From the IMG/VR virus record IMGVR_UViG_3300028585_000514: a stretch of DNA of 64,000 bases. One strand, given 5' to 3'. Position numbers and translations under genes: made by a program. Every line of letters starts with the position of its first letter. Position 1 is the stretch's first letter. The notes under the pieces were generated by a model, which saw only the letters and a program-made list of their open reading frames with translations, made no database searches and was not told the DNA's origin. Source of the stretch: a virus (taxonomy: Duplodnaviria; Heunggongvirae; Uroviricota; Caudoviricetes). This document shows, in pieces, positions 2,325-34,892 of this stretch.

Positions 2325-3353
2325 TTACAGCTTGTTGATAAAGTGCTCGCCGATGTGGAAGTGGTCTTCGAACATCACAGCTTCCATTTGACGGAACTGT
2401 GCGAACGTGAACCATTTTGCCTTCTTGGCATCGTCGGAACCTTTAACTTTTGGCAGACCAGTGCCATGCTGCTCGAGATGAATCAGTGCAGCTTCGGTGA
2501 TGATACGACCGCGGAGCGAACGACCTGGATTCATGAACAACTTCTGTTCGCGAACAGCTTTGCGCAGGATGATTTCTGGCAAGTCAATCTTTGCTTCCTC
2601 GATCAGTTCACGAATCGCTGCATCGAGGTAGGTCTTGTCACCTGGATTCAGGTAACCACCTGGCAGAGCCCACAGGTCCTTCCCAGGGGCATTCTTGCGT
2701 TGGATCAGAAGGATATGTCCAGACTGAACCACAACTGCGTCCCCTGTGTTGAACGTGGGCGCATAGCGAGCAAATGCCCATTGCTTGGCATGCTCGTCCA
2801 GGAACTTTTGTTCTTCGAGGATGTAGTCGTACGCATCAGTTACTTGGAACTCCTTCAGATACTCGATCACGTTCTTTGGCAAATACAGCGGAGCTGCAGC
2901 CATGAACTTGTTCTTAAAGAAGGCAGAACGAAGGTCTGTTGCGTTGATCGTTTCCAAGCCATCGGTCTCGACGTGAGGCGAGAATTGAGGAAACTTTTTC
3001 AGGTAGTACGAAGAGTCGTCTTTCGAGTAGCCAATCAAGGAAACTTTCTTGGCGCCTTTACGATTACGGTGGACGGCGCGTTGCACGCCTTCGATCCATT
3101 GTTCTTCGTTGTATGGGCGATCGCGAAGTGGCTCGAACGATACTCGTTCAAGTTCGGATGCAGTGAGTGCACCTTGGATCATTGCGCGACGTTCGTCGTA
3201 AGTCCAAGGGTTCTTAGGAGTGCGAGGCTGATCTGCACTGCCGATCAAGATGACCAGACGTTCGGATTGTGCAAGTGCCTCTTTGATGACCATCTCATGA
3301 CCGAGATGGAAAGGTTGGAATCGCCCGATGTAGGCGAGAAGTTCGTATTTCAT
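2325..3353 (-). CDS. nadM: bifunctional NMN adenylyltransferase / Nudix ADP-ribose pyrophosphatase (NadM-Nudix, NatV-like)
   Basis: The N-terminus has the GRFQPFHLGH (HxGH) nucleotidyltransferase motif. The C-terminus has a Nudix box, PGGYLNPGDKTYLDAAIRELIEEAKI. Confidence 0.85.
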   Translation of the reverse strand: MKYELLAYIGRFQPFHLGHEMVIKEALAQSERLVILIGSADQPRTPKNPWTYDERRAMIQGALTASELERVSFEPLRDRPYNEEQWIEGVQRAVHRNRKGAKKVSLIGYSKDDSSYYLKKFPQFSPHVETDGLETINATDLRSAFFKNKFMAAAPLYLPKNVIEYLKEFQVTDAYDYILEEQKFLDEHAKQWAFARYAPTFNTGDAVVVQSGHILLIQRKNAPGKDLWALPGGYLNPGDKTYLDAAIRELIEEAKIDLPEIILRKAVREQKLFMNPGRSLRGRIITEAALIHLEQHGTGLPKVKGSDDAKKAKWFTFAQFRQMEAVMFEDHFHIGEHFINKL

Positions 3354-4542: not shown

Positions 4543-4968
4543 TTAATCCAGGTCTTCTTCTTTTCGAATGACCTGTTCAGCCAGCTGAACGATGTCCTTA
4601 TGAAGATCACGTCCCACCTTCATGAACTGGTCACAAGTCAACCAAATGACTTCATCAGTTTCATAGTGAGGTGTGTCGAACTCTTCTTTGTTCTTCACCT
4701 TAGCCACGTAGACCGTAGTACGTCCCAGGAAATTACCCAGTTCGGTTACGGACAACGTATTTTCTTGTCGCAGGCCTAGTTCCTCTGCACCTTCTCTTAA
4801 CGCTGCAGTCCTGTTGTCCTCACCATCTTCCACTACACCTTTGCATAGTTGGAACTGGTCGCCACCGTAAAGTGTTTCGGATGGCTTCATGAACATCATC
4901 AGGACTTCACCGTCTTCGATAAGGTAAGGGATCATACCGGCACGGTATAGAATTTTCTTACCTTTCAT
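4543..4968 (-). CDS. Nudix hydrolase
   Basis: A Nudix box is present: GVVEDGEDNRTAALREGAEELGL, matching GX5EX7REUXEEXGU. Confidence 0.75.
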   Translation of the reverse strand: MKGKKILYRAGMIPYLIEDGEVLMMFMKPSETLYGGDQFQLCKGVVEDGEDNRTAALREGAEELGLRQENTLSVTELGNFLGRTTVYVAKVKNKEEFDTPHYETDEVIWLTCDQFMKVGRDLHKDIVQLAEQVIRKEEDLD

Positions 4969-5213: not shown

Positions 5214-5915
5214 TTACACTCCGGCGAACATCGAGTCGGACATCTTCTGGAACGTACCTTTGATACGGCTGAAGATGTAGTTAGCGATCTTGCGAACTGG
5301 GTCGTTGATGATCGTCCAGGTGAACGAGATCGGCCAGAACATGATCCACTGCGTGATGCTCGACTTGTGTTGCATCGCCAGCGGCTTGAACGATTGCGGG
5401 ATGTTCGATGGGTTCTCGGCCAAGTCGGTCTTGTCGATCGACTCGTACAGACGCATACGGCTGCTGTTCACGAAGCGGAAGAAGTCCAGGTTGCGTTCCA
5501 TGATTTCTTCACGCTCTTGAGCTTCTTCTTTGTTCTCGACCTGGTCTTTCGACTTGGCAGTGCGGAGGAACAGTTCGCCGAGCTTGTTGTTCTTGCGATA
5601 CTTATCTTTCAGCTCGACATATAGGTCACGGACATTGGCCAGTTTGAAGTACCACTTGGCGAAGGACCAGAGGACACCGATGACGAAGTAGCTTGCGATG
5701 CCGATTGCCAGGCTGGTAGGATTGCTGATGATGGCACCGAAGTCGATGCTGAAGTGATTGCCAACCAGCCAGACGAGAAAAGCGGAGAAGATCGTGGTCC
5801 AGCCCCAGCCGGATGCTTTGTCATCGTCGATGTTCAGAGCGATGCCGAGGATGAAGAGGACTACCAGTGCGTAGAACACCAGCGGGATAGCGAAGAAGGC
5901 AAAGATTGCTTCCAT
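5214..5915 (-). CDS. hypothetical membrane protein
   Basis: Several hydrophobic segments at the N-terminus. An AGGAG Shine-Dalgarno and an ATAATA motif lie upstream. Confidence 0.65.
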   Translation of the reverse strand: MEAIFAFFAIPLVFYALVVLFILGIALNIDDDKASGWGWTTIFSAFLVWLVGNHFSIDFGAIISNPTSLAIGIASYFVIGVLWSFAKWYFKLANVRDLYVELKDKYRKNNKLGELFLRTAKSKDQVENKEEAQEREEIMERNLDFFRFVNSSRMRLYESIDKTDLAENPSNIPQSFKPLAMQHKSSITQWIMFWPISFTWTIINDPVRKIANYIFSRIKGTFQKMSDSMFAGV

Positions 5916-8021: not shown

Positions 8022-8480
8022 TTAGAAACTCTGATTGTCGTACTCTAAGGTCTGGCTTAGATTGACACCGTGGTATCGCTTAACGATTTTAGCGAATGCC
8101 ATAAACTGGTCGCCGTGGTCAATGTCGCACATTTCGTCATAGCCATGGCGCTGCGCCAAAGCCTGATGTACCATTTCATGTACAACGACATTGATGAGTT
8201 CTTTGACATCCTTGATACGCTCGCAGAAACGGAGCGTGATGCCATTGGCGCCTTTGTTATCGCAGTAGCCCATGATGTGGGCATTCTCTGGACGATTTTC
8301 TACTGGCACTAGATAATCTAGGTCGGCCTCTAACGTAAACTCTGGCTCATTAAGATTGCCAAAGATTTTTGTATTGACGTCGGCCCAGATTTGTTTGATG
8401 GAGTCGAGCGAAAGCCAATCGTCTTTCGGCTCGAATTTTTCAGGCTGGCTCTCCAGAAACTGTTTGAAGGTTCTTTTCAT
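8022..8480 (-). CDS. SprT-like zinc metallopeptidase domain protein
   Basis: An HEMVHQ (HExxH) motif sits in a 152-aa protein. Confidence 0.6.
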   Translation of the reverse strand: MKRTFKQFLESQPEKFEPKDDWLSLDSIKQIWADVNTKIFGNLNEPEFTLEADLDYLVPVENRPENAHIMGYCDNKGANGITLRFCERIKDVKELINVVVHEMVHQALAQRHGYDEMCDIDHGDQFMAFAKIVKRYHGVNLSQTLEYDNQSF

Positions 8481-9204
8481 GTTGGTCTTTTACGATTTTC
8501 AGTATGTTATCAATCGCTTCTGTGGCCGGCGCGAAGAACGTGCGGTCAAACAGACGATAGTCGATCATACCATATTTATCTTTGTCTTTATTATTCAAGA
8601 TCGTAAAAGACTTGTTGGGAGTACGACGATTGCCGGCAATCTTGTCCATTGCGATCACTTCGCCAGAGGTACCGATCACGAGAATGATGTCCTTACGCGA
8701 GTCACGGAAGGCCTTGTACATGTTCGGATACTCAGGAGCACCTTCGTTAAAGAAGATCACGCCCGGCTTGACACCAGCAACCGACCCACAGCATGGGCAT
8801 GCGGTACCCAACTGAACTTCAGTGAAGCCAACATCCCAGATATGCTCGCAGTCGAGACACTTCATGTCAGTGAACTTGCCATGGACATGGACGACATCTT
8901 CACAGCCAGCACGTTCAAGGAAGTCGTCGATGTTTTGAGTGAACACCTTCACGACATCCTTGCCATACTCCTTCTGCAGTGCAGCGATACCTTCGTGAGC
9001 CTTGTTAGGCTTCAGGGTAGGCAGTTCGACGCGACGTTCGTTGTAGAACTTGAACACCGTTTCTTTATGCAATGGGAACGTCCAGAGGTTTGCTACAACA
9101 TCTGGATTGTACTTCGTCCACAGTCCGTCGTCATTGTCTCGGAAGGTGGAGATGCCAGACTCAGCAGAAAGACCAGCACCAGTGAAAATCAAAATTTGGT
9201 TCAT
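8440..9204 (-). CDS. cobB: Sir2-family NAD-dependent deacylase (CobB-like)
   Basis: GAGLSAESGISTFR matches the GAGISAESGIPTFR sirtuin motif. A CxxC…CxxC zinc site is present (CLDCEH…CPCCGS). Confidence 0.85.
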   Translation of the reverse strand: MNQILIFTGAGLSAESGISTFRDNDDGLWTKYNPDVVANLWTFPLHKETVFKFYNERRVELPTLKPNKAHEGIAALQKEYGKDVVKVFTQNIDDFLERAGCEDVVHVHGKFTDMKCLDCEHIWDVGFTEVQLGTACPCCGSVAGVKPGVIFFNEGAPEYPNMYKAFRDSRKDIILVIGTSGEVIAMDKIAGNRRTPNKSFTILNNKDKDKYGMIDYRLFDRTFFAPATEAIDNILKIVKDQHEKNLQTVSGEPA

Positions 9205-9451: not shown

Positions 9452-9480
9452 AAAAAAGCCACCCAATGGGTGGCTTTTTC
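9452..9480. terminator. hairpin GCCACCC-AAT-GGGTGGC with flanking A and T runs
   Basis: Downstream of 9500..10156 on the minus strand. Belongs to the CCAATGG-loop family. Confidence 0.6.
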
Positions 9481-9499: not shown

Positions 9500-10156
9500 T
9501 TACGCGGCCTGCTGGACTGGCTGATCGTCCTTCGGCGGGTTCTTCTCGTTTGCCGAGCGCGAGTAGACGAACGACACCGGACCATCCTTCGACTCTTGCA
9601 GCTTGTCGATCTTCATGGTGAAGCGATCCGATTGCGAACGGAGGATCGAGATGTAGACGTGGGTGATGCGTTCGGTGGTGCCGCAGCGTTCCATCAATTG
9701 CTTGATAGTCCATTGCTTGTAGGTGCCATCTTCGTTCTTCTCCCAGAAGGCGCGGCGCATCTTCTGCAGCTTCGAATCACGCTCCTTGCGTGGCTTCTTG
9801 CCGGCCATGGCTTCTTGTTGAACGATTTCTTCCGACTTCTGTTCGACGACCTTTTCTTCCTGCTTGTCGAACTGAGTCAGCAGGGACAGGTCCATCTTGG
9901 ACAGCAGACCGAAGACTTTCTCGGCTGCTTTCTCTTTCGCGATCTTGAACTTATTGATCGGCTCGACCGAGTGGGACTTGCCGAACTGCTCGAACGCGTT
10001 AAACAAGTCCGTCAGCTGCTGGAGCGACAGGACCTCGAGGTCTTTGGCTGAACTGACGATCAACTGATCCTCGGTGGCTTTCTCTTTTGCAGCATCTGGG
10101 TTTTGTACGAAACCCGCAACGTTGTTCAGTTTGGTGTTGATGATGAAAGCCGACAT
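9500..10156 (-). CDS. hypothetical protein
   Basis: A 218-aa ORF with a TGTACT-N17-TATAAT promoter upstream and a hairpin terminator downstream. Confidence 0.6.
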   Translation of the reverse strand: MSAFIINTKLNNVAGFVQNPDAAKEKATEDQLIVSSAKDLEVLSLQQLTDLFNAFEQFGKSHSVEPINKFKIAKEKAAEKVFGLLSKMDLSLLTQFDKQEEKVVEQKSEEIVQQEAMAGKKPRKERDSKLQKMRRAFWEKNEDGTYKQWTIKQLMERCGTTERITHVYISILRSQSDRFTMKIDKLQESKDGPVSFVYSRSANEKNPPKDDQPVQQAA

Positions 10157-10322: not shown

Positions 10323-11849
10323 TCAGTTCCGATTCTTTCTCTTAGTACCATGGGCTTTGTAATCGGCTTGGTACCGGCCTTGGGCGTCGAACGTTTCCAC
10401 TACAACATCGAATTCCCAGAGGTTGGCGAGATGGCCGATCGTCTCTTTGGCCAGGTCCGGATGGAGAGCACGACCTTGGTGAGGAGTGTGCACCAGGTAC
10501 ATAGAACGATCGCCTAGGACGTTTACTTCATCGACTTGGATGTCTGGCACCCAGTTGGCACGATTGTAGCTATCGGCCAATGCATTACGGATGTCGATGT
10601 AGCCTTGATCATTGTGGATGGCTGAGATTTCGACGAAGTTTTCTGCCGAGTCATCCTTGACCGAGAACATCTTGAAGTCACGCATCACCTTCGGCGACAG
10701 GAACTGCTGGATGAACGAGTCATCTTTGTAGTTCGCCATTGCGTCATGGACTGCATCGACCCAGTCCTTACCGATCAAGAATGGGAACCAGCGCTTGTCT
10801 TCTTCGGTTGGATTCTCGCAGATGCGCTTGATGTCCATGAAGATCGCGAAGCCGAGCGCATATGGATTCCAGCCACTGAAGTAACGTGAATCGAACTCGG
10901 GCTGATACACGACGCCGGTATGGGACGTGATGAACTCGAGGAACGAACCTTCCGTGATCAGGCCTTCGTTGCGCATCTTCTCCATGATGTAGTAGTGCGT
11001 GAAGGTGGCGAAGCCTTCGTTCAGGACCTTGGTCTGAGCTTGCGGGTAGAAGTACTGGGCGAGCTTGCGGATGATGCGGATGATTTCACGTTTCCACGAA
11101 GGCAGGTCCGGAGCATACTTCTCGATGAAGTACAGGATATTGTCTTCACGATCCTTAGGAAACTTTGGTTCCTCCGCGTCAGCTTCCAGCTTCTTCGGCA
11201 CGGTCTTATCCCAGATTGGATCGTAGTCAATACGTTCCTGTTCCAGGCGATCCATCGCACGTTGCTCTTCATCTTTCGACGAGAGCTTGCTACGGCGAGT
11301 GTAACGATCGACGCCGTAGTCCATGAGGGCATGGCAGCTGTCGAGAACCGATTCGACTTCGTCGGTGCCATACTTCTCTTCGCATGCAGCGATGTACTTC
11401 TTGGCGAACACCAAGTAGTCGATAATGGCGCCGGCATCGGTGAACTGCTTGAACATCATGTTGCCTTTGAACACAGCCGAGTGTCCAGCACTTGCGTGAG
11501 CCATGACCAAGGCTTGCATGGTCATGTTGTTCTCTTCCATCAAGTACGCGATGCACGGATCGGAGTTGATCACGATCTCGTAAGCCAGGCCCATTTGGCC
11601 CGTTTTGTACGCTTCATGGTTCCGCAAGAATTCCTTACCGAACGACCAGTGCTTGTACATGACTGGCAGGCCGGTGGAGGCATAGCAGTCCAGCATCTGT
11701 TCGGACGAGATCACCTCGAATTGAGGCTTGTAGTAATCGAGACGCAGGTCTTGCTTTGCGATGCGGTCGATTTCGATCCAGGTTTTTTCGAGAAGGTCAA
11801 AATTCCAATCTTGACCGGCTTCGAACAGAGGCTTCTTTTTCTTTGCCAT
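10323..11849 (-). CDS. spoVR: SpoVR-family protein
   Basis: The 508-aa product is conserved along its length with the SpoVR/YcgB family. It is the third gene after prkA and yeaH. Confidence 0.9.
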   Translation of the reverse strand: MAKKKKPLFEAGQDWNFDLLEKTWIEIDRIAKQDLRLDYYKPQFEVISSEQMLDCYASTGLPVMYKHWSFGKEFLRNHEAYKTGQMGLAYEIVINSDPCIAYLMEENNMTMQALVMAHASAGHSAVFKGNMMFKQFTDAGAIIDYLVFAKKYIAACEEKYGTDEVESVLDSCHALMDYGVDRYTRRSKLSSKDEEQRAMDRLEQERIDYDPIWDKTVPKKLEADAEEPKFPKDREDNILYFIEKYAPDLPSWKREIIRIIRKLAQYFYPQAQTKVLNEGFATFTHYYIMEKMRNEGLITEGSFLEFITSHTGVVYQPEFDSRYFSGWNPYALGFAIFMDIKRICENPTEEDKRWFPFLIGKDWVDAVHDAMANYKDDSFIQQFLSPKVMRDFKMFSVKDDSAENFVEISAIHNDQGYIDIRNALADSYNRANWVPDIQVDEVNVLGDRSMYLVHTPHQGRALHPDLAKETIGHLANLWEFDVVVETFDAQGRYQADYKAHGTKRKNRN

Positions 11850-11858
11850 GATGATTCC

Positions 11859-13157
11859 TTATTTGACTTTCTTTTCGAAAAGTTCTTTGAACACTGGATA
11901 GATGTCCGAGTCCTCGAAGACCGAGTTCATTTGGAAGTGAGAGACAGCATTAGCCACACTCTCGTACGTCGCCCAGATGTCGCTCTGATACCCCGGGGAT
12001 TGGCCGACTTGGATATAGGCATAGTACTGGCAGGCTGGCAGAATCGTGTCAACCAGGAGGTCGTGGCACACTGCGTTGTCTTCATACCAGTTATCGCCGT
12101 CCGAGCATTGGCAGACGTAGACGTTTGTGTTGCCATCGGCATATTCGTCCGTGATGATCTTGGCCAACGTGCTGAGAGCCGACGACACCATCGTACCACC
12201 TGATTCGCGGGAGTTGAAGAACTCGTCTTCGTCGACCTCTTTCGCTTCGGTGGTGTGCGAGATGAAGCGCACGGTGATCTTCTCGTACTTGCGGGCCAGG
12301 AACATGTACAGCAGCCAGAAGAACTTGCGGGACAGGGTCTTTTCATGCTCACCCATCGAACCCGAGATGTCCATCACGCAGAACATGACAGCACTCGTGA
12401 TCGGATGCTCTTCGGCGACGATCGAGTGGTAGCGCAGGTCGACTGGGTCCAGGAACGGCACGTTCTCGATCTTGCGCTTGTAGCCCAGGATTTTCTTTTC
12501 GAGTTCAGCGATCTCGGCATTGTGCTGGGTGGTAGCCATGATTTCTTGTGGCACGCCCATTGTCAGCAGTTCAGCCAGTTCGGCTTCTGCTTCCTTCAGC
12601 TTACGCTTGTAAGGAGCACGGCTCGTGATGCGACGACCTTGCGATTGGCGCAGGGTTTTCGAACGATCCAGTTTGGCCGGCGAACCAGTCGACGAGTAGC
12701 CAGCGTTGTGATACTTGACTTCGACCATCTGACGCAAGTTTTCCTTGGTCAGGTCTGGCAGTTCCAGTTCTTCGAACAGGAATTCCAGGAACTCCTCGCG
12801 GGAGATTTCGACAATGAAGTCGTCTTCGCCTTGACCAGAGTTTGAAGCTTTACGACCGCCTTGGCCTTGATCTTGTGGCGGCTTACGGAAACGATCGCCC
12901 GTGTTGAATTCTTTATTGCCAGGACGAACCGTCTCGCGAGTACCACCTTGTCCATGACGGAACGATGGCTCGTTGATATTCTTCTGCGGGATGTGGACGA
13001 TGCCGCCATCGCTTGCGATGTCCTGGATTTTACGCGAGTTGATGATGTCTGGTAAGGCTTTCCTTACTGATTCGCGAATACGCTTGAGGAATTTCTGACG
13101 GTTGTCGAGAGATTTACCCTTGCCGTTGATTCGTCGATCGACGATCGTGAAGCTCAT
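11859..13157 (-). CDS. yeaH: YeaH/DUF444 (UPF0229) protein with a vWA-like C-terminus
   Basis: Starts MSFTIVDRRINGKGKS, as in the YeaH family. The true start is the internal Met preceded by AAAATAAT; the track ORF begins too far upstream. Confidence 0.9.
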   Translation of the reverse strand: MSFTIVDRRINGKGKSLDNRQKFLKRIRESVRKALPDIINSRKIQDIASDGGIVHIPQKNINEPSFRHGQGGTRETVRPGNKEFNTGDRFRKPPQDQGQGGRKASNSGQGEDDFIVEISREEFLEFLFEELELPDLTKENLRQMVEVKYHNAGYSSTGSPAKLDRSKTLRQSQGRRITSRAPYKRKLKEAEAELAELLTMGVPQEIMATTQHNAEIAELEKKILGYKRKIENVPFLDPVDLRYHSIVAEEHPITSAVMFCVMDISGSMGEHEKTLSRKFFWLLYMFLARKYEKITVRFISHTTEAKEVDEDEFFNSRESGGTMVSSALSTLAKIITDEYADGNTNVYVCQCSDGDNWYEDNAVCHDLLVDTILPACQYYAYIQVGQSPGYQSDIWATYESVANAVSHFQMNSVFEDSDIYPVFKELFEKKVK

Positions 13158-13158
13158 A

Positions 13159-13422
13159 TTATTTTCCTGATTGAGGGTCGTTGATGACCGGCGCTGCAGG
13201 TTGAACTTGAAGCTTGCATGCAAGCAAGGCGTGTGGAACTTCCGAACCACCTTTCAAGACTACCATCTCTTCGCACGATTTCGCTTGAGCCAGAGCCGCG
13301 TTGGACTTGACACTCGAGTCATGGATGAAATATGCAATGCCGAGGATAACTGACACGATGAAGGTGCCGACCAGAAGTACAGTCACAACCGAGCTCGTGT
13401 TATCGTCCATTTCGATTTTCAT
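13159..13422 (-). CDS. small membrane protein
   Basis: An 87-aa product with one transmembrane segment. Its stop abuts the yeaH start. Confidence 0.5.
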   Translation of the reverse strand: MKIEMDDNTSSVVTVLLVGTFIVSVILGIAYFIHDSSVKSNAALAQAKSCEEMVVLKGGSEVPHALLACKLQVQPAAPVINDPQSGK

Positions 13423-13460
13423 GATTGCCTATTATTTTTGTATGAGGTACTACGTGCTGC

Positions 13461-13727
13461 TTACGAAACCAGGATTTCTCGTTTCAGGTAGGACAAAATC
13501 ATCCAGTCCTGAAAGTAAACTTCCTTGCCGTTGAGTTGGCTGAGGAGGTGTTCTTCATGTTCTTCGTCTTCGGCAAATGCGATGATGAATTCGCGAAGCT
13601 CTTCACGATTCTTGTCCGTCACTTTGACTGGGAAATCGTTGCAGCTATTATTGCTTAACTCGTCGGATGCCTGCTCTAGAAGTTTTGCGAAGATTGCCTT
13701 TTCAGTGTCGTTAAAGCTTAGGTTCAT
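13461..13727 (-). CDS. hypothetical protein
   Basis: An 88-aa acidic ORF. Confidence 0.5.
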   Translation of the reverse strand: MNLSFNDTEKAIFAKLLEQASDELSNNSCNDFPVKVTDKNREELREFIIAFAEDEEHEEHLLSQLNGKEVYFQDWMILSYLKREILVS

Positions 13728-13943
13728 TTGTCAGTCGGGTTGTTAGCCCATTTGAAGATTTTGTATGCACCACGGAGAATGCTGAACACACCGATAACAA
13801 CAACACCGATTAGTCCCACCGTGAATCTCAATAGCACCGGACCAAATACGAGTAACGCAATGATCCCTAAGATAATCAATACTACGGTCATGTTCTCTTT
13901 CGAATGCCACCGACTCGTGAAAGTCGGTGGCGGCCTTTAGTGA

Positions 13944-15884
13944 TTACTTGTTCTTACGAACACGCATCCACCATTCAACCAGCAGGCGGGTCTGGCGCGG
14001 GGTGTAGCCCAGGTCGGACATGCGCTTGACGAAGGACTCGTGTGCTTCTTGATCCTTCTTCGAGCCTTTCGACGAGAAGCTGATCACCGGCAGGATTTCT
14101 TCAGTCGATGCGAACATCTTCTTCTCGATCACCTGGCGCATCTTCTCGAATGCATCCCATTTCGGCGACTTGCCTTTGTTCTCGGCCTTGTGGCGGAGGA
14201 CGAAGTTCACCAGCTCGTTACGGAAGTCTTTCGGGTTCACGATCCCGGCCGGCTTCTCGATCTTCTCGAGTTCGGCGTTCAGCGTCGAGCGATCGAACTG
14301 CTCTTGCGTGTCCGGGTCGCGGAAGTCTTCGTCACGAATCCAGTAGTCAGCGTACTGGAAGTAGCGGTCGAAGATGGTCTGGCCGTAGTCGGCGTACGAG
14401 TCCATGAACGCGATGCGAATCTGGTTCTCGACGAACTCGACGTACTTGTCGCCCAGGTGATGCTTGATCAGGTTGACGAGATGTTCTTCGCGATCGGATG
14501 GATACTGCTCCTTGACGATTTCCTGCTCGAGGACGTACATCAGGTGGATCGGGTTCGCGGCCAGTTCTTCCGAGTCGAAGTTGAACACCTTCGACAGGAT
14601 TTTGAAGGCGAAGCGAGTCGAGACGCCGTTCATGCCTTCGTTGACGCCGGCCAGGTCCTTGTATTCCTGCAGCGGCTTGGCACGCGGGTCGGTGTTCTTG
14701 ATGTTCTCGCCGTTGTAGACCGACATCTTCGAGAACAGGTTCGAGTTCTGTGGTTCGACCAGGCGGGACATGACAGCGAACTTGGCCAACATTTCCAGGG
14801 TTTCAGGAGCACATGGCGCCTTGGCCAGGGCCGAACCAGCCAGCATCTTCTTGTAGATCGACACTTCTTCGTCGACACGCAGGCAGTACGGCACCTTGAC
14901 GATGTAGACACGATCCAGGAAGGCTTCGTTGTTCTTGTTGTTGCGGAACGTTTTCCATTCCGATTCGTTCGAGTGTGCCAGGACGATGCCATCGAACGGG
15001 ATCGACGAAACGCTGTCGGTGCCGTTGAAGTTCTTTTCCTGCGTCGCGGTCAGCAGCGGATGCAGCATCTTGATCGGCGCCTTGAACATCTCGACGAAGT
15101 CCAGGATACCTTGGTTGGCGCGGCACAGGCCGCCGCTGTAGCTGTATGCGTATGGGTGGTCGGCGGCGTAGTCTTCCAGCTTGCGGATGTCGACCTTGCC
15201 GACGAGGGTCGAGATGTCTTGATTGTTCTCGTCGCCTGGTTCGACCTTGTCGATTGCCAGATGTTTCAGCACCGATGGGTATTGCTTGACGACGGTCAGT
15301 TGGGACAGGTCGCCGTTGACTTCTTTCAGGCGTTCAACCAGCCATGGCGAAGCGTTGACGCGCAGTGCGGTGCGTGGGATGCCGAACTCTTCTTCGAGTT
15401 GCTTAGCGTAGGTGGCCTTGTCGAATGCCGACAGTGGGTGGTCATGGATTGGCGAACCTTCGATCGAGTAGATCGGTTCGTGTTCCATCAGCTCTTTCAG
15501 CTTTTCAGCCAGGGACGATTTGCCGCCGCCGACTGGGCCGAGCAGGTACAGGATTTGTTTCGATTCTTCCAGGCCTTGGGCGCTGTGACGGAAGTACGAA
15601 ACGATCGATTCGACGGCGTCTTCCATGCCGAAGAATTCACGGAACGCGGGGTAGACCTTGATCACGCGATTCGAGAAGATACGACCGAGACGGCTGTCGC
15701 TCTTGGTGTCGATGGTTTCCGGTTCGCCGATTGCTTTCAGCATGCGCTGAGCAGGAGAAGCGTAGACGGACGGATCGTTCTTGCAACGTTCCAGGAAATC
15801 CGTCATGGACATCTTCTCGCTGGTGTTGCGGCGAGCATAATCGCTTGCGAATTGAGCAAGCATACCGGTCGGTGCGTTAGACAT
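13944..15884 (-). CDS. prkA: PrkA-family serine protein kinase (YeaG)
   Basis: The 646-aa product has a Walker A motif (LLGPVGGGKSSLAEKLK) and PrkA-family conservation throughout. Confidence 0.9.
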   Translation of the reverse strand: MSNAPTGMLAQFASDYARRNTSEKMSMTDFLERCKNDPSVYASPAQRMLKAIGEPETIDTKSDSRLGRIFSNRVIKVYPAFREFFGMEDAVESIVSYFRHSAQGLEESKQILYLLGPVGGGKSSLAEKLKELMEHEPIYSIEGSPIHDHPLSAFDKATYAKQLEEEFGIPRTALRVNASPWLVERLKEVNGDLSQLTVVKQYPSVLKHLAIDKVEPGDENNQDISTLVGKVDIRKLEDYAADHPYAYSYSGGLCRANQGILDFVEMFKAPIKMLHPLLTATQEKNFNGTDSVSSIPFDGIVLAHSNESEWKTFRNNKNNEAFLDRVYIVKVPYCLRVDEEVSIYKKMLAGSALAKAPCAPETLEMLAKFAVMSRLVEPQNSNLFSKMSVYNGENIKNTDPRAKPLQEYKDLAGVNEGMNGVSTRFAFKILSKVFNFDSEELAANPIHLMYVLEQEIVKEQYPSDREEHLVNLIKHHLGDKYVEFVENQIRIAFMDSYADYGQTIFDRYFQYADYWIRDEDFRDPDTQEQFDRSTLNAELEKIEKPAGIVNPKDFRNELVNFVLRHKAENKGKSPKWDAFEKMRQVIEKKMFASTEEILPVISFSSKGSKKDQEAHESFVKRMSDLGYTPRQTRLLVEWWMRVRKNK

Positions 15885-16062: not shown

Positions 16063-16275
16063 TTATTCTTCGTCGAGAACGTTGATCACGGCAATCATGC
16101 TAGCGGTCGGCGAGTTATCATGACCGACAATCGTGACATCGCCGTTCTCTTCCAGTTGGGCCACGGTGTACGTGCCATTCGTGTAACCCGAGTCACGATC
16201 ACAGTTCACGAGCTCGATTTCGTCGCGGACCGAGATGGCATCTGGAACTTGTTGGTTGAGGAAGCGGAGTTCCAT
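16063..16275 (-). CDS. hypothetical protein, translationally coupled to the bactofilin gene
   Basis: The start overlaps the upstream stop as TAATG. Confidence 0.5.
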   Translation of the reverse strand: MELRFLNQQVPDAISVRDEIELVNCDRDSGYTNGTYTVAQLEENGDVTIVGHDNSPTASMIAVINVLDEE

Positions 16276-16727
16276 TATGCACCTCCCAGAGCCGGTTCGC
16301 TGGAAGGCATACCACGAGGCCCTACGTTATGCAGGGCGAACTCGGACTCGTCGCCGAAGGTGCACTTCAGCTCGCCGTTCACTTGTGCCCCTGGCTCCAT
16401 CTGGAGGGCCTGATAGATCACTTTGCCATTGACACGGCCGGTGCTGGTGATATAGACACTGCCGGCCTGGATGTCGCCATTGACAGTTCCGGCAACGATC
16501 ACGTTGTCACAGGCCAGGTCACTGTGTATGGTGCCCGTCTTGTCGACGGTGACCGAGGTCGAGGTCTCGTCGTCGACACGTTCCATCTTGCCGTGGACCT
16601 CGCCACTGACCTTGATCGAGCCCTTGAATTTCATCGCGCCATGAACCGAAGTTCCTTCCGAGATGATCGAGTCGACGCCAGCGATGTTGGTCTTGACCTT
16701 TGGTTTGTTCTTACCGAATCCGAGCAT
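16275..16727 (-). CDS. bactofilin-family protein
   Basis: Repeated beta-helical G…V…G turns, for example GTVNGDIQAGSVYITSTGRVNGKV, typical of the DUF583/bactofilin domain. The start is the internal Met preceded by GGAGAATAAT. A promoter lies upstream. Confidence 0.7.
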   Translation of the reverse strand: MLGFGKNKPKVKTNIAGVDSIISEGTSVHGAMKFKGSIKVSGEVHGKMERVDDETSTSVTVDKTGTIHSDLACDNVIVAGTVNGDIQAGSVYITSTGRVNGKVIYQALQMEPGAQVNGELKCTFGDESEFALHNVGPRGMPSSEPALGGA

Positions 16728-16859: not shown

Positions 16860-17435
16860 GTGAATCGCCCATTCTCCAAAATATTGGTCCTCGACCAGGG
16901 CGGGACTCCTAAGTCATGGATTGACCGTCAAAAGGCAATTGAATATGCAGCAACCAACTCGGTTGCTTGGATTCCGCCGACCGCAGAAACAAACACCGTT
17001 TTCGGTGGTACAAGTTCTCTCACAGGCCTACCATCTCAAGTAGAGATTGCGTCAATCATCGCAATCAAAGGTCCTATGGCGGCACAGCTAAACGGCTACA
17101 AGACTCCAAAGGTCTCCAACAAAGCATTGTTCGCTCGCGACCATCACCGTTGCGCGTACTGTGGAAACTACTTTGACACCGAAGCCTTGACTAAGGATCA
17201 CATTAATCCAAAAGCAAAGGGTGGCAAGAATACGTGGATGAACTTGATCACTTCGTGCAAGCCATGTAACGCTAGAAAAGCAGACCGAACTCCAGAACGC
17301 GCTGGTATGCAACTGAGATACAAGCCGTACAATCCAACGCCGATCGAATACCTCTGGCTTCGGAACCGTTCCATGACTGATGAACAAATCAAGTACTTGG
17401 AAGACTTCGATACCAAAGGTCGTCGCAAGCAATAA
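16860..17435 (+). CDS. HNH homing-type endonuclease
   Basis: HHRCAYCG…DHINPKAKGG…N…CKPCNARK forms an HNH motif. The gene has a GTG start preceded by CAAAAATAATAAAGGAAG, and it is an isolated plus-strand gene. Confidence 0.8.
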   Translation: MNRPFSKILVLDQGGTPKSWIDRQKAIEYAATNSVAWIPPTAETNTVFGGTSSLTGLPSQVEIASIIAIKGPMAAQLNGYKTPKVSNKALFARDHHRCAYCGNYFDTEALTKDHINPKAKGGKNTWMNLITSCKPCNARKADRTPERAGMQLRYKPYNPTPIEYLWLRNRSMTDEQIKYLEDFDTKGRRKQ

Positions 17436-17477: not shown

Positions 17478-18572
17478 TTATTGCGACAGTGCTTCGACCC
17501 GTGCGTTGAAGATCGTTTCGGCAATCTTTGACTTGTCCGTGCACTGCTGCGCGATTCCACCAGCCGGCACCTGATACACCTTGCCCGCATCGCTTCGGAT
17601 CACGTTGAAGACTTCGGGCGGCCATTCCTCGCCGGTGTTGCTCGACATAATGAAGCTGGCAGCCGTCATGATCTGGTTGAAGCGTGGGATGCGACGGATG
17701 GCATCGCAACGCTGGAAGAACTGCACGCGTTCGATTGGCGTCAGCTTCTCGTAATTCGTGAAGGACTGCATGTTATTGTTCACGACCATCGAGACTTCTT
17801 GACAGTCCGAAGGGATAGTCCACTTGGCGTAGTCTTCCTTCATCTTGAAGCCACTGGCAATCGTCGCGAAACGAACTTCCAGGCTTGCATCGTTCTCGGC
17901 AGCCATTTGCAAGGCGCCCATCGATTTCGAGTAGCCGACGAAGAACTCTTTCAGAACGCGATCGGCATGAACACCATGCAGCGCGATGAACATGCGATCC
18001 GGCCGACGTTCCATCAACCCCTTCTTGAATTCAGCCCACACGCGTTCGGGCGTCACGTGATCGAGCTCACCCATACGAATCATTTCGGCTGCCATGTTCA
18101 AAGTCTCGCTGGCGATTTCGAAGGTGTCGTAACGAGCGAAGAAACGAGCGAGACGCAGGACGCGCACTGGGTCTTCACGGAAGGCGTCCGAAGTGTGTCG
18201 CAGAACTTTGCGCTCCAAGTCTTCCTGGCCGCCATAGGGATCGACGACGGTACCATCAGGAAGCATGGCCATGGCATTGATCGTCAAGTCACGACGAGCC
18301 AGATCATCTTCCAGTGTCACGTCTGGCGAGAACATGACTTCGAAGCCATGGTAGCCTGGACCGGTTTTCTTTTCCTGGCGAGCCAGTGCATACTCCTCGC
18401 CGGTGGTCGGGTGCAGGAACACCGGGAATTCTGCGCCGACTTGCTGAAAGCCGAGCGACACCATTTCCTCGATCGTTGACCCGACCACAACGTAATCGAT
18501 GTCTTGAGGGTCGAAGCCGAGCAGCTTGTCTCGCACTGCACCACCAACCATGTATACTTTCAACTGATCCAT
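17478..18572 (-). CDS. cca: tRNA nucleotidyltransferase (CCA-adding enzyme) with an HD domain
   Basis: Starts MDQLKVYMVGGAVRDKLLG, matching the Cca N-terminus. The start is the internal Met preceded by AAGGATAAT. Confidence 0.85.
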   Translation of the reverse strand: MDQLKVYMVGGAVRDKLLGFDPQDIDYVVVGSTIEEMVSLGFQQVGAEFPVFLHPTTGEEYALARQEKKTGPGYHGFEVMFSPDVTLEDDLARRDLTINAMAMLPDGTVVDPYGGQEDLERKVLRHTSDAFREDPVRVLRLARFFARYDTFEIASETLNMAAEMIRMGELDHVTPERVWAEFKKGLMERRPDRMFIALHGVHADRVLKEFFVGYSKSMGALQMAAENDASLEVRFATIASGFKMKEDYAKWTIPSDCQEVSMVVNNNMQSFTNYEKLTPIERVQFFQRCDAIRRIPRFNQIMTAASFIMSSNTGEEWPPEVFNVIRSDAGKVYQVPAGGIAQQCTDKSKIAETIFNARVEALSQ

Positions 18573-18579
18573 ATTATCC

Positions 18580-18792
18580 TTAGTCGTAAACGTGTTCTGG
18601 AATTCGGTGCCAGCAACCTGTAAAGGTTTCTGACACAATAGCACTGAATGATTTATTGAGGTTCTGATCGACATAGCCGGACGGGATTTTCTTGCGATTT
18701 AGCTCGCGAAGCCACACCCATCCAAATTCAATCGAGTAAACTGGATACCAGCAGAACCACTCATGCCATTCGGTTTTAGGTTTCTTTTTCAT
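18580..18792 (-). CDS. hypothetical Trp-rich protein
   Basis: A 70-aa ORF. Confidence 0.5.
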   Translation of the reverse strand: MKKKPKTEWHEWFCWYPVYSIEFGWVWLRELNRKKIPSGYVDQNLNKSFSAIVSETFTGCWHRIPEHVYD

Positions 18793-20390: not shown

Positions 20391-20628
20391 ACTTTTTAGC
20401 GATACGAATATTGGTCTCTAGGCGTCGAGCAAACTATTGGAGAACTTGGATGATGTGGCCGTTGGAAGCCTTTGAACCACCAAGTCCTTTCCAAGCCACC
20501 GGAGTATGGACAGTCAGAAGGTTGTTTATTCGAGACTTTAGCTTGTGATCCTTCTTCAAGGCATTTCAAGCGGGTAGCTGCGTTGGCATCGGCCATGAAA
20601 CACTCCTATTAGATTTGGTGTGAGACGA

Positions 20629-21535: not shown

Positions 21536-22049
21536 AGAACACCGAGTAAAGGTCGTTGTACTCGACGAACTCTTTGTCGCCTTGTTTCTTGCGAGTCACC
21601 TTGACGTTGTACTCGTCGCCTTCATTGTTCTGACGATGGTTATTGCAGTGCTTCGAGACGTATGCTCGCTTCACTGTTTCGCCAGTGGTCAAGTCCAAGA
21701 AGTCTGCATACACATGCTTTGGTGGGTCGATTCCAATCAACTGGATGCGATGCACCTCTTCAGCAAGGACAACGACGGGCAAAGGCTTGTTGGCTTCGCG
21801 TGCTTTCTCAGATTCGTAGAAGAAGTTCCCGACGGACCATGCGGTCATGAGGCCAAAGATGAGTGGTGCGGCGACAACGAAGAGGGCGTAGAAGATGCCA
21901 GCACCGCCTTCAGTGCTTTCATCCAAGAACACGTCGTGAATGAAGGCTGGGATACCCCACACCAGAAAGCCACCAAGAACACCGGCTAGGATAGTTCCAA
22001 TTGCGAAAAACATGAAGCCAAGGACGGCAATGACGAAGTCTGCGATCAT
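21525..22049 (-). CDS. hypothetical membrane protein
   Basis: Multiple transmembrane segments at the N-terminus. Confidence 0.6.
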   Translation of the reverse strand: MIADFVIAVLGFMFFAIGTILAGVLGGFLVWGIPAFIHDVFLDESTEGGAGIFYALFVVAAPLIFGLMTAWSVGNFFYESEKAREANKPLPVVVLAEEVHRIQLIGIDPPKHVYADFLDLTTGETVKRAYVSKHCNNHRQNNEGDEYNVKVTRKKQGDKEFVEYNDLYSVFCGN

Positions 22050-22444
22050 TCCATTCTCCCGAAAGTAATGTGAAAGTTATAGTTAGGATTGAGGCCGAGA
22101 CTCTGACGAATCTCTTCCAGTTTTTTGCTACGAACCGGAAGCGTCCAAAACTTCCAGTGTTGCTCCATGTCAACGGAGTATTCGAAGTCGATCACTTGCC
22201 CATGGAACTTCTTCCACATTGGGTGCTGATTGTCGTTCTTGACTTTGCCGTCCACGATAGTGATGTGCGGCAAGAATGCTGTGTTCTGGAGGATCAAGCC
22301 GTGGCGCTTGCGAACCCAGTACCGATACAATTCGGCAATACCTGGATCGACATTAGCCACGACCAAAGTACCAGGCCGAACCTTACGGAGGCCTGGCCGG
22401 TATGGATCATAGAACACCTTTGCAGTGGATTTGACCCATGTCAT
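22046..22444 (-). CDS. 2H phosphoesterase (LigT / 2'-5' RNA ligase-like)
   Basis: Two H-x-T motifs are present: PHITIVD and FHITFGR. Confidence 0.65.
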   Translation of the reverse strand: MTWVKSTAKVFYDPYRPGLRKVRPGTLVVANVDPGIAELYRYWVRKRHGLILQNTAFLPHITIVDGKVKNDNQHPMWKKFHGQVIDFEYSVDMEQHWKFWTLPVRSKKLEEIRQSLGLNPNYNFHITFGRME

Positions 22445-22446
22445 GA

Positions 22447-22935
22447 TTACTTCAAGAGCTTAAGCTCGCCTGTGATTTTATCAATGTCATCCGGATTCGC
22501 CGGACCGATCGCTGCGGTAGTGTACGTCTTCACACCTTTGAACACCGTATGACCGTTGTCCTGGATCAGAGCACACGGAATACCGAGGCCAGATGCCTTA
22601 GCGTACAGCACCAGCAGCTCTTCTTCTGAATGAACTTCGAGAATGATCTTGGTGAACTCACCATTTTTCCATTCCCACATGTCCGGGGTCATTGCGATCT
22701 TCAGCGAGCCGCCAGTTTGTGGTAGGCCAAACTTTGCTTGTGCTGCTTGCATCGCATTTTGTTCTTCACGATCGAAGAACACCTTCATTGATGCGTGAGC
22801 TACTTGTGAAGCAAGCTTACCGGGTTTCATACCGATGTCGGTGCGGACGAGGATGACTTGCTTTGGCTTTTTGTATTCGGGGATTGCTAATAGGTTAGTG
22901 TCCATGTTTTTCGTATTCTTTTCTTGCATGGTCAA
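22447..22935 (-). CDS. peptidyl-tRNA hydrolase, PTH2 type
   Basis: VILVRTDIGMKPGKLASQVAHAS matches the PTH2 signature [22 protein letters not shown]. Confidence 0.65.
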   Translation of the reverse strand: MTMQEKNTKNMDTNLLAIPEYKKPKQVILVRTDIGMKPGKLASQVAHASMKVFFDREEQNAMQAAQAKFGLPQTGGSLKIAMTPDMWEWKNGEFTKIILEVHSEEELLVLYAKASGLGIPCALIQDNGHTVFKGVKTYTTAAIGPANPDDIDKITGELKLLK

Positions 22936-29005: not shown

Positions 29006-29089
29006 TGGTGCCCAAAGCCGGACTCGAACCGGCACGCCTTGCGGCAGCGGATTTTGAATCCGCCAAGTCTACCATTCCATCATTTGGGC
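29006..29089 (-). tRNA. tRNA-Leu, anticodon read as CAA; type II with a long variable arm; CCA encoded
   Basis: Hand-folded: acceptor GCCCAAA/TTTGGGC, anticodon stem GCGGA/TCCGC with loop TTCAAAA, T-arm CCGGTTCGAGTCCGG, and a 3' CCA. Confidence 0.7.
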
Positions 29090-30888: not shown

Positions 30889-30973
30889 TGGTGCCCAGAG
30901 CGGGACTCGAACCCGCACTTCTTTCGAAACCGGATTTTGAGTCCGGCGCGTCTACCAATTCCGCCATCTGGGC
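30889..30973 (-). tRNA. tRNA-Leu, anticodon read as CAA; type II; CCA encoded
   Basis: Hand-folded: acceptor GCCCAGA/TCTGGGC, anticodon stem CCGGA/TCCGG with loop CTCAAAA, long variable arm, T-arm GCGGGTTCGAGTCCCGC. Confidence 0.65.
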
Positions 30974-34617: not shown

Positions 34618-34892
34618 GTTGATGAGCTTTCGTTAGCAATGATTGTTATTTTTGTCCATTTGCCAACTGGGCACTCCGCTGATGACAAATAAGTTTTGGC
34701 GGCCATGAAGCAACCACATTTTTTACACGTTGATGTTACTTCAACAAAGTGTGGGCACGACTTGCAAATGTCATATCGTTCTTCACGAACAGAACTTTCA
34801 ACCTTCAGTTCGTCAAAGCGTTCGGCTGCTGCTTGCGCGCCAGCGGCAACAACGGCTTGAGTGCGCTCGGCGAGTTTTTTTAGAAAGGACAT
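34614..34892 (-). CDS. small Cys-rich (CxxC…CxxC) protein
   Basis: DICKSCPHF…CKKCGCF…AECP; GACATATTATTTTT lies upstream. It sits between the PP-loop gene and the peptidase gene of module 1. Confidence 0.55.
   Translation of the reverse strand: MSFLKKLAERTQAVVAAGAQAAAERFDELKVESSVREERYDICKSCPHFVEVTSTCKKCGCFMAAKTYLSSAECPVGKWTKITIIANESSST

Follow-up and report, generated by a model that had tools for sequence, protein, structure and literature searches.

The yeaG-yeaH-ycgB module (prkA-yhbH-spoVR) is among the most conserved bacterial stress modules, and its mechanism is mysterious. The E. coli PrkA (YeaG) has been described as a kinase, its B. subtilis counterpart as an ATP-dependent protease (PMC9512850) and B. 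anthracis PrkA as having neither kinase nor protease activity (PMC13001217), and the enzymatic activity of PrkA is disputed across these three species. The three genes act together, with cofitness of r>0.7 in six species (10.1101/072470). Starved E. coli cells quiet their metabolism and put off regrowth through the joint action of YeaG and YeaH; loss of the two proteins shortens the lag phase and excess lengthens it (PMC10954441).

Systems of related architecture are the MoxR AAA+/vWA pairs (RavA-ViaA, CbbQ-CbbO and NorQ-NorD), in which an AAA+ protein adjoins a MIDAS-bearing vWA protein, as in the locus described here. A MoxR-vWA-metallopeptidase pair was described in group 2.2 jumbo phages by Iyer et al. 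2021 (PMC7824862).

The trio itself has stood in public phage records since 2006, and again in 2018–2021, so that its bare presence in a phage is not new. The Thermus phage phiYS40/TMA carries gp56 (DUF444), gp57 (SpoVR), gp58 and gp59 (PrkA) in a cluster (DQ997624, 2006), and its record already annotates SpoVR and a ‘serine kinase’. In the paper on Ralstonia phage RsoM2USA, PrkA was placed under signalling and SpoVR under replication/repair, whilst the DUF444 gene was omitted and no module was recognised (PMC8504454).

The trio in the window

The window, the whole 64,000-nucleotide stretch of viral DNA analysed here, contains the following features in and around the trio.

9453..9479, no strand: G+C-rich hairpin, 12-bp stem, with A and T runs on its flanks (terminator scan)
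9500..10156, minus: orphan gene (ORF), 218 aa, directly downstream of SpoVR
10323..11849, minus: SpoVR/YcgB-family protein (Pfam and NCBIfam), 508 aa, zincin-like predicted fold
11859..13157, minus: YeaH/YhbH-family DUF444 protein, 432 aa; the ATG at 13157 agrees with the source gene call
13159..13422, minus: small inserted gene, 87 aa, hydrophobic segment at residues 12–30 (source-contig gene call)
13461..13727, minus: small inserted gene, 88 aa, acidic, net charge −10 (source-contig gene call)
13724..13891, minus: small inserted gene, 55 aa, strongly hydrophobic, likely a membrane protein (source-contig gene call)
13944..15884, minus: PrkA/YeaG-family AAA+ protein (‘serine protein kinase’), 646 aa (Pfam and NCBIfam)
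16063-16275: acidic ORF, 70 aa, between the bactofilin gene and PrkA
16275..16727, minus: bactofilin-domain gene upstream of PrkA (Pfam Bactofilin, 4.4e-24)
16860..17435, plus: HNH endonuclease (PHROG HNH, 3.6e-27)

The initial annotation had described a full-length PrkA with a Walker A motif, a YeaH and a SpoVR, free of inactivating lesions, and this description holds: all three proteins score above curated cutoffs, lie on the minus strand and have no internal stops in their ORFs. PrkA, for which the family models were NCBIfam NF011999 and Pfam PF08298 and PF06798, matches AAA_PrkA (1.6e-165, profile positions 1–358 of 358), PrkA_C (4.2e-60, 2–255 of 255) and PRK15455 (NF011999; 1079.7 bits, cutoff 576, model positions 3–643 of 644). 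Its Walker A motif is GPVGGGKS at residues 116–123 (K122), and E265, D324/R325 and K428, the counterpart of E. coli K426, show 99–100% conservation in 146 sequences; PrkA-family mutants at B. subtilis K108 and E. coli K426 are defined in PMC9512850 and PMC10954441. The protein matches PDB chain 9xip with E 3e-49. In the Pfam search, kinship with MoxR amounted to a weak bpMoxR match far under threshold.

The longest ORF of YeaH begins at a GTG at 13250. The protein matches DUF444 (PF04285) with 2.1e-155 over profile positions 2–418 of 418 and NF003707 with 541.5 bits against a cutoff of 396. The DUF444 part of its earlier description, as DUF444 plus a vWA-like region, is thereby secure, whilst the vWA part leans on two motifs in the C-terminal half, a MIDAS DxSxS and a β4 (S/T)DG. 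The corresponding sequences, DISGS (residues 263–267) and CSDGDN, are 99–100% conserved in the 146 sequences, phiYS40 included; the sole Pfam match to a vWA profile is CobT_C, sub-threshold at E=0.16 (12 bits, cutoff 21).

SpoVR matches PF04293 (1.2e-154, positions 1–405 of 407), SpoVR_C (PF24755, positions 1–54 of 55) and NF008737 (747.7 bits against a cutoff of 679). Its predicted model, new in this analysis, is gluzincin-like, with a thermolysin-like catalytic-domain fold. The sequence contains neither the HExxH motif nor its catalytic Glu, and the protein is classed for this reason as having a zincin-like fold and not as a zincin peptidase. A conserved set consisting of AH118AxxGH123 (HVYGH in phiYS40) and E278 in xEGFA provides candidate metal ligands, and the module is probably metal-binding. 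If the model is right, this fold, with its His/His/Glu set, would be a new structural lead that recasts the trio.

The three genes are thus intact, retain their ATPase, MIDAS and candidate metal-ligand residues and evolve under purifying selection, with dN/dS of 0.10–0.18 (0.12 for PrkA against viral contig L004 and 0.18 for YeaH). Every catalytic and ligand motif of the trio is retained, as are 83–87% of the residues invariant in bacteria.

The order PrkA-YeaH-SpoVR with common orientation is found in 69/69 bacterial loci, in 54/54 complete viral loci and in the window. Contiguity, which had also been claimed, does not hold: 786 bp and three small genes part PrkA from YeaH, the one directly adjoining pair being YeaH and SpoVR, with 9 bp between them. 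The window shares families and order with the bacterial module (E. coli, Shewanella, Pseudomonas and Bacillus); it differs in that its trio is viral, interrupted, phage-adapted in composition and presumably outside RpoS/NtrC/SdsR control.

Other jumbo phages do carry the trio: RsoM2USA (gp30-29-28), three uncultured phages of ~640 kb and nearly all of 69 IMG/VR viral contigs have it, with its order unchanged. RsoM2USA (MG752970; ORF30-ORF29-ORF28) resembles the window in order, orientation and identity (PrkA 60%, YeaH 46%, SpoVR 59%), shares the neighbouring NAMPT, NUDIX, NMNAT and HNH genes and is of similar size class (344 kb, against window-type contigs of up to 349 kb), although its trio is contiguous, without the three small genes. 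PhiYS40, at 152 kb also a large phage, likewise has all three families grouped, but its PrkA is only 28% identical, the gene order is different and there is an extra 616-aa gene; these differences, together with a PrkA that matches the solved chain 9xip far better (E 7e-97) than the window PrkA does, suggest a separate acquisition.

Phage context and age of the acquisition

The phage context assumed at the outset is borne out by tRNA genes, orphan genes, PHROG content and synteny with RsoM2USA, which together point to a jumbo phage. The window and 10 kb beyond each of its ends (84 kb) hold ~150 mostly small orphan genes. Within the window, 17 tRNA genes form a cluster and 74 of 100 crude ORF calls are on one strand. 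A block comprising NAMPT, NUDIX, NMNAT, SpoVR-YeaH-PrkA, HNH and a 2H phosphoesterase is collinear with RsoM2USA, whilst most other window genes tested have no match in RsoM2USA or other phages. A 216.6 kb contig carries the exact window PrkA, and members of its 90% cluster lie on contigs as long as 348.9 kb, lengths that exceed the 200 kb of the jumbo phage definition. The evidence for phage identity is strong but indirect, and the trio probably lies in the accessory arm of a ~345–350 kb jumbo phage, a distant relative of RsoM2USA. A scan with the RsoM2USA terminase did not retrieve the source contig. The neighbouring phage genes include NAD+ synthesis genes, Sir2, tRNA-maintenance genes and an RMF-like ORF, the last a marginal Pfam match (28.7 bits against a threshold of 27.9).

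Two explanations would deny the trio a lasting place in a phage genome. Were the window bacterial chromosome or prophage-adjacent host DNA, the trio would be the host's own operon; this artefact is real in one record, that of Enterobacter phage LAU1, in which yeaG-yeaH lies at the extreme edge of a lambdoid prophage record, and the window with the 10 kb on each side of it yielded no capsid, terminase, portal or tail genes. We consider it extremely improbable here, as the tRNA cluster, the majority of small orphan genes, the strand bias and the synteny with an isolated jumbo phage all speak against it, as does the finding of no bacterial housekeeping genes in the 84 kb. Moreover, genes are inserted inside the operon in 17/54 viral loci, the type to which the 786-bp gap of the window belongs, against 0/69 bacterial loci (tight packing being taken as gaps of at most 300 bp), and no PrkA above ~67% identity is found in cellular genomes. 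The initial annotation, for its part, had read the co-occurrence and GC content of the three genes as a sign of en bloc capture from a host; were this capture recent, the genes could be a neutral foreign passenger. The trio is indeed richer in GC than the rest of the window (0.529 against 0.484, a difference of +0.045), and its GC3 values of 0.77 (PrkA), 0.67 (YeaH) and 0.69 (SpoVR) place them 1st, 8th and 5th among the 55 genes that reach 150 aa; gene order is as in bacteria, phage PrkA is nearer to bacterial PrkAs (~66%) than to other phage lineages (~60%), and a single viral PrkA clade was not recovered with broad sampling. However, adjacent orphan phage genes have equally high GC3 (0.774 at 5214-5915 and 0.758 at 9500-10156), so that the claim of GC enrichment stands against the window and fails against the immediate neighbours, and across 62 viral loci the GC of the trio follows that of its flanks (r=0.97, range 0.27–0.66), as expected of ameliorated genes. 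The search for a donor lineage gave no single answer: the nearest cellular PrkA is ~67% identical (185,579 species genomes; 5.8 billion proteins) and the best bacterial SpoVR matches ~59%, with the best relatives in Burkholderiales and Chromobacteriaceae for PrkA but in Vibrio and Chitinimonas for SpoVR. Related phage-type contigs are 71–100% identical. Against viral contig L007, dS is saturated yet the proteins are still 67–81% identical, which with the low dN/dS and the same block and neighbours in RsoM2USA makes recent capture very improbable.

Old acquisition, followed by inheritance within phage lineages, is what these sequence comparisons indicate, because there is no near cellular donor, the best bacterial relatives differ by gene, GC tracks the phage and the block is syntenic with RsoM2USA. 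Of ~640 ORFs flanking the viral loci, only 4 have a match in the flanks of bacterial ones. Viral PrkA sequences also share derived residues, V273M, carried by 92% of them but by 5% of bacterial PrkAs, and K73R.

Possible role in infection

We regard it as reasonably probable that the trio is an old, vertically inherited and functionally maintained phage copy of the bacterial PrkA(YeaG)-YeaH-SpoVR(YcgB) stress module that steers the infected cell. The three proteins may work as one machine, with PrkA as its Walker-A/B AAA+ motor, YeaH as the kind of vWA/MIDAS adaptor known from MoxR-vWA pairs, and SpoVR as a zincin-like, probably metal-binding module lacking the HExxH catalytic motif; it is the gluzincin-like SpoVR model without HExxH that lets the trio be read as an AAA+/vWA/zincin-like machine. 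Because the biochemistry of PrkA is disputed, this model is drawn from architecture. The likeness to the MoxR-vWA pairs would be a functional analogy only, as PrkA is an AAA+ family of its own with a C-terminal PrkA domain and the third component is predicted to be zincin-like but has no HExxH. The machine would act on a few conserved proteins by remodelling, modifying or processing them, and these would be cellular ones since the phage proteins are 55–67% identical to cellular orthologs.

Acting free of host RpoS/NtrC control, the phage copy would bring the infected cell into, or keep it in, a state like that of starvation, with low growth yet continued viability, a proposal made because the YeaG and YeaH proteins of E. 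coli quiet metabolism and delay regrowth. Neighbouring phage genes for NAD+ synthesis, Sir2, tRNA maintenance and the RMF-like ribosome-hibernation factor would act beside it, and the benefit would come when infection is prolonged or hosts are starved of nutrients. That the phage manipulates host starvation or persistence physiology, as first suggested from the gene content, is plausible by analogy, since the E. coli role of the module and the nearby genes (RMF-like, NAD+ and Sir2) are both in keeping with it.

Two other functions can be set against this reading. The trio could be an antagonist or decoy of host YeaG-YeaH-YcgB that, through mixed inactive complexes or hyper-activated turnover, prevents a quiescent state that would stall replication. 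Host quiescence is generally bad for lytic replication, the dose of YeaG/YeaH matters in starvation exit of E. coli (PMC10954441), and viral copies carry lineage-specific substitutions where bacteria are nearly invariant, among them V273M in PrkA and W284T and R476N in SpoVR. We nevertheless hold a decoy to be unlikely, as the retained catalytic and ligand motifs and invariant residues have the look of conserved activity, and a simple decoy would not need all three partners. Alternatively, the trio could serve as an assembly chaperone for virions or replication factories, acting on phage proteins like the MoxR-vWA systems of jumbo phages and of Acidianus two-tailed virus. The AAA+ motor, vWA/MIDAS partner and zincin-like fold form an analogous architecture, a comparable pair has been described in jumbo phages (PMC7824862) and a gene for a cytoskeletal protein, bactofilin, lies upstream; yet the cellular orthologs to which the phage proteins are so similar work in phage-free cells, the locus lies amid metabolic and auxiliary genes and not structural ones, and most jumbo phages do without the trio (PrkA is found in 17/50,697 phage records). 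This function appears still less likely than a decoy.

Steering of the infected cell, our preferred reading, can be extended tentatively to the unrelated large phage lineages that carry the trio (RsoM2USA-like, ~640 kb and Thermus phages), in which it would impose a dormancy-like host state together with RMF and NAD+/Sir2 genes. We think this wider claim rather doubtful; if true, very large phages would replicate in, or wait inside, starved cells, and the phage copies would offer a tractable route to the biochemical mechanism of the module. That several independent very large phage lineages keep the trio together is strong comparative evidence that it is one functional unit and that control of the pathway pays off in infection. 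The trio, the RMF-like ORF, NAD+ synthesis genes and Sir2 form a candidate ‘host-quiescence’ toolkit, which would extend the auxiliary repertoire of jumbo phages.

Inserted and flanking genes

The three small genes between PrkA and YeaH are under purifying selection. The 55-aa gene has a Kyte-Doolittle 19-residue maximum of 3.15 and is 68% identical in L004 with a dN/dS of 0.115 (over a frame-preserving range shifted by one codon, which had no match in Pfam and PADLOC searches). The 88-aa gene is 85% identical in L004 (dN/dS 0.125) and the 87-aa gene 93% (dN/dS 0.085), with a weak match in L007; neither had a match in Pfam, NCBIfam or PADLOC. The PADLOC search of six proteins, the trio and the three inserted ones, returned no defence-system match.

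Downstream of SpoVR, the 218-aa orphan gene shares the strand of the trio, has no Pfam or PHROG match and is 40% identical in L007 at an equal relative position; it is possibly the last gene of the transcription unit of the trio. The hairpin beyond it is a candidate bidirectional terminator closing this unit, as a consensus match only. Upstream of PrkA, the bactofilin gene is kept in L004 (82%) and L007 (33%), and homologs of the HNH endonuclease lie 1–6 kb upstream of PrkA in RsoM2USA, L004, L007 and 9 further viral contigs.

Identity and integrity of the trio genes

The three large genes named in the initial annotation are present as minus-strand open reading frames (ORFs) within 10323-15884 and encode PrkA (YeaG), YeaH (DUF444) and SpoVR (YcgB), with strong Pfam and NCBIfam matches; PrkA also scores 1079.7 bits against its NCBIfam equivalog (cutoff 576). 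Family matches of such strength make the trio a real observation, far beyond chance.

Genes of the trio and the small genes inserted between PrkA and YeaH
13944-15884, minus strand: PrkA, 646 aa; full-length matches to the two Pfam PrkA domains (1.6e-165 and 4.2e-60)
13724-13891: small inserted gene, 55 aa
13461-13727: small inserted gene, 88 aa
13159-13422: small inserted gene, 87 aa
start at ATG 13157, minus strand: YeaH/DUF444, 432 aa; DUF444 2.1e-155; NF003707 541.5 bits versus 396
10323-11849, minus strand: SpoVR, 508 aa; 1.2e-154 plus SpoVR C-terminal domain; NF008737 747.7 bits versus 679

The start of YeaH is most likely the ATG at 13157, which agrees with the gene call on the source contig, an upstream GTG at 13250 being less likely. 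The description of the trio as contiguous holds for YeaH and SpoVR, the only abutting pair, but not for PrkA and YeaH, which are split by 786 bp containing the three small genes.

The trio is complete and free of inactivating lesions, as had been judged by eye: the genes contain no internal stops, key motifs are kept and dN/dS relative to L004, the most closely related viral contig carrying the trio, is low (PrkA 0.12, YeaH 0.18 and SpoVR 0.105). The three small inserted ORFs have dN/dS values of 0.085-0.125, which indicates that they too are genuine genes. The window proteins retain 83-87% of the residues that are invariant to at least 98% among bacterial orthologs (69-81 sequences). The PrkA Walker A motif GPVGGGKS (residues 116-123), E265, D324/R325 and K428 are 99-100% conserved among 146 sequences, K428 being the counterpart of E. 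coli K426, the ‘catalytic’ lysine used in PMC10954441. The only Pfam vWA match in YeaH is to CobT_C and is below threshold (E=0.16); the MIDAS DxSGS and β4 ‘CSDGDN’ motifs, 99-100% conserved, support its assignment as a vWA-type protein.

Probable phage setting and neighbouring genes

The window is very likely phage DNA, on the indirect evidence of its tRNA arrays, its gene content and its synteny with RsoM2USA, a cultured Ralstonia jumbo phage of 344 kb; the hallmark capsid, terminase and tail genes were not seen. The tRNA genes number 17 and lie in minus-strand arrays, several of them being present more than once (Leu-CAA x3, Glu-UUC x3, Tyr x2 and Ser x4); with the adjacent CCA-adding enzyme, PTH2 and 2H phosphoesterase genes they make up a set for supplying and repairing tRNAs. 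Other window genes encode MazG, AlkB, HNH, NAMPT, an NMNAT-NUDIX fusion and Sir2, and the remainder are mostly small orphans. The block collinear with RsoM2USA comprises NAMPT, NUDIX, NMNAT, SpoVR-YeaH-PrkA, HNH and 2H phosphoesterase. The 10 kb past each window end encodes thioredoxin, NAD kinase, UDG, thymidylate synthase, NAD synthase, RNA ligase and DUF551, and adds no bacterial housekeeping genes. An identical PrkA is encoded by a JGI contig of 216.6 kb, and the longest contig with a member of its cluster measures 348,873 bp; a scan of metagenome contigs for the RsoM2USA terminase returned three loci, all unrelated, with no link to the source contig. The 17 tRNAs, small orphans, collinear block and lack of housekeeping genes thus uphold the phage-like context first proposed for the trio. 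The single ‘phage’ record whose trio genes are host DNA, that of Enterobacter phage LAU1 with yeaGH at a prophage edge, has a quite different appearance.

Features around the trio
693-2255, 2325-3353, 4543-4968, 8440-9204 and 62111-62914, with L162 11632-12823: NAD+ toolkit
8022-8480, minus strand: SprT-like zincin, HEMVH motif, weak Pfam SprT-like match
9453-9479: hairpin, perfect 12-bp stem, AAAAAGCCACCC-AAT-GGGTGGCTTTTT, flanked by A and T runs
16063-16275, minus strand: 70-aa acidic ORF
16275-16727, minus strand: bactofilin-domain protein (Pfam 4.4e-24)
16860-17435, plus strand: HNH endonuclease
17478-18674: CCA-adding enzyme
20396-20596, minus strand: RMF-like ORF, 66 aa (Pfam RMF 28.7 versus 27.9 bits gathering threshold, E 1.4e-6)
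22046-22444: 2H phosphoesterase
22447-22935: PTH2
29006-29089, 30889-30973 and 53121-53197, minus strand: tRNA genes
42354-44973, minus strand: main tRNA array
33067-35766, 35823-38260 and 49296-51838, minus strand: paralogous S8 protease cassettes, two genes each

The HNH gene lies on the strand opposite to the trio, and the same gene recurs at a distance of 1-6 kb upstream of PrkA in the trio-carrying viral contigs L004 and L007, in RsoM2USA and in nine further viral contigs; its linkage with the phage trio is conserved. Just upstream of PrkA, the bactofilin gene and the 70-aa acidic ORF are kept in L004 and weakly in L007. The RMF-like ORF, ~4.5 kb upstream of PrkA and 82% conserved in L004, is a candidate phage-encoded ribosome-hibernation factor. 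The NAD+ toolkit is near-complete (NAMPT, NMNAT-NUDIX fusion, NUDIX hydrolase, Sir2 deacetylase and NAD synthase), with NAD kinase and thioredoxin just beyond the left window end. The SprT-like gene overlaps the 3' end of the minus-strand Sir2 gene at 8440-9204 by ~40 nt, and the two may be translationally coupled. A promoter and terminator consensus scan yielded nothing informative except one strong hairpin, likely a bidirectional intrinsic terminator, past a 218-aa gene downstream of SpoVR.

The cassettes each pair an S8 (subtilisin-like) protease (516, 516 and 542 aa; 39-57% mutual identity) with a partner protein (290, 291 and 304 aa; 36-53% identical), and their nearest phage matches, Bacillus phage S8 peptidases, are ~30% identical. 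Orphan window proteins searched by tblastn against phages gave either no match or matches of just ~30% to Bacillus phages or Lak megaphages; outside the block shared with RsoM2USA, the window is largely novel. For the trio and its three inserted genes, PADLOC gave no defence-system match.

Distribution and origin of the trio in phages

Megablast found nothing similar to the locus among 50,697 phage records, and its relatives are detectable at the protein level only. With PrkA as the tblastn query, 17 of the same records matched: eleven are of Thermus phages and four of uncultured phages of ~600-640 kb, the other two being RsoM2USA and the LAU1 artefact. In RsoM2USA the trio is contiguous (gp30-29-28) and labelled ‘hypothetical’ in GenBank, and the paper describing this phage assigned PrkA to one functional class and SpoVR to another, never treating them as a unit (PMC8504454). 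In the 2006 record of Thermus phage phiYS40, DUF444, SpoVR, a 616-aa gene and PrkA cluster together. Phage trio genes are therefore already on record (phiYS40 2006, RsoM2USA 2018-2021); those large comparative jumbo-phage papers that were searchable make no mention of the module. IMG/VR contains 69 PrkA-encoding contigs; in nearly all that reach far enough, PrkA is followed by YeaH and then SpoVR. The question of whether other jumbo phages carry the trio is thus answered by RsoM2USA, three phages of ~640 kb and nearly all of these contigs. The trio is tightly packed in 69/69 complete bacterial loci; insertions of more than 300 bp, as in the window, occur inside it in 17 of 54 complete loci of the viral set. 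Phage-type neighbours like those in the window recur in many viral loci (NAMPT and NMNAT in five, Sir2 in three), and viral flanks have short ORFs, only 4 of ~640 flank ORFs matching bacterial flanks.

The co-occurrence of the three genes and their GC richness had been taken to suggest en bloc acquisition from a host; a recent capture of this kind is not supported. The window trio is indeed 0.045 higher in GC than the remainder, with high GC3 (PrkA 0.774). However, two adjacent orphan genes match its GC3, the small inserted genes being average, and across 62 viral loci (GC 0.27-0.66) trio GC tracks flanking GC (r=0.97, mean difference +0.006), which implies long residence; GC is therefore no evidence of recent capture. 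A search for the donor lineage, covering 5.8 billion proteins and 185,579 species genomes, found top cellular PrkA at ~66-67% identity, chiefly from Burkholderiales and Chromobacteriaceae, and a group of metagenomic proteins, whose contigs reach 350 kb, at 73-100%. SpoVR has a similar gap (71-92%, then at most ~59%), with Vibrio, Chitinimonas and Endozoicomonas as the best named bacteria, and no coherent recent donor is apparent from these identities. PrkA of a 636 kb, 27% GC phage likewise has few close relatives, followed by a bacterial plateau at 65-68%. Two apparent close relatives, P0004 and P0018, labelled ‘Salmonella’ and ‘E. coli’ PrkA, owed their selection to very high bit scores and were discarded as ordinary YeaG with internal duplications.

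In trees where bacteria were limited to the window's closest relatives, all viral copies separated from every bacterial one, with bootstrap values of 97, 94 and 86; the window joined L004 and L007 (98-100) and, weakly, RsoM2USA. When bacteria were sampled more broadly and distances gamma-corrected, the single viral clade was lost, leaving viral-only groups on an unresolved backbone; neither monophyly nor any particular number of captures, one included, is therefore claimed. Derived residues that they share argue for a common ancestry of most viral copies: among 83 viral and 294 bacterial PrkA sequences, V273M occurs in 92% versus 5% and K73R in 86% versus 10%. Thermus-phage PrkA is only 28% identical to window PrkA, a distance that makes a separate acquisition probable, and is much closer to PDB chain 9xip than window PrkA is.

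Module architecture and proposed role

In bacteria, yeaG, yeaH and ycgB are mutual best cofitness partners in six species and form one operon in most (10.1101/072470). PrkA uses its Walker A motif to bind and hydrolyse ATP, and published accounts of its activity differ: kinase, ATP-dependent protease (PMC9512850) or neither (PMC13001217). SpoVR gave no match by Foldseek or sequence profile. Residues H118, H123 and E278 (‘xEGFA’ motif) form a His/His/Glu set common to every member including phiYS40, whilst HExxH and a catalytic Glu are absent. The idea that RExxR replaces HExxH in helix 251-272 was dropped as the motif is not kept in phiYS40, and no SpoVR-zincin link was found in the literature. 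The trio can thus be read as a machine in which PrkA is the AAA+ motor, YeaH the vWA/MIDAS adaptor and SpoVR a zincin-like component that may bind metal, an architecture that echoes the MoxR-vWA-metallopeptidase pairs of other jumbo phages (PMC7824862). The breadth and conservation of the trio in large phages and the predicted zincin-like fold of SpoVR seem to have been under-appreciated, and make an old question on this module more testable.

Under nitrogen starvation, E. coli YeaG and YeaH jointly quiesce metabolism; growth restarts sooner in mutants, and the lag is longer when YeaG is in excess (PMC10954441). It is plausible that the phage controls host growth or quiescence through the trio, close to the starvation or persistence manipulation proposed initially: on this favoured explanation the phage would express its own machine and set the state of the infected cell free of host regulation, the trio acting jointly with the RMF-like gene (20396-20596), the NAD+ synthesis genes and Sir2. 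Under an antagonist model the effect of the phage trio could instead run in the opposite direction, and under an assembly model its targets could be phage proteins. Mutations of yeaG and ycgB in a T7/iron experimental evolution study were judged uninformative for phage biology.

In phiYS40, the 616-aa product gp58 (L157 4073-5923), encoded between SpoVR and PrkA and lacking a Pfam match, could represent either a fourth partner protein or a paralog of PrkA that has diverged strongly.
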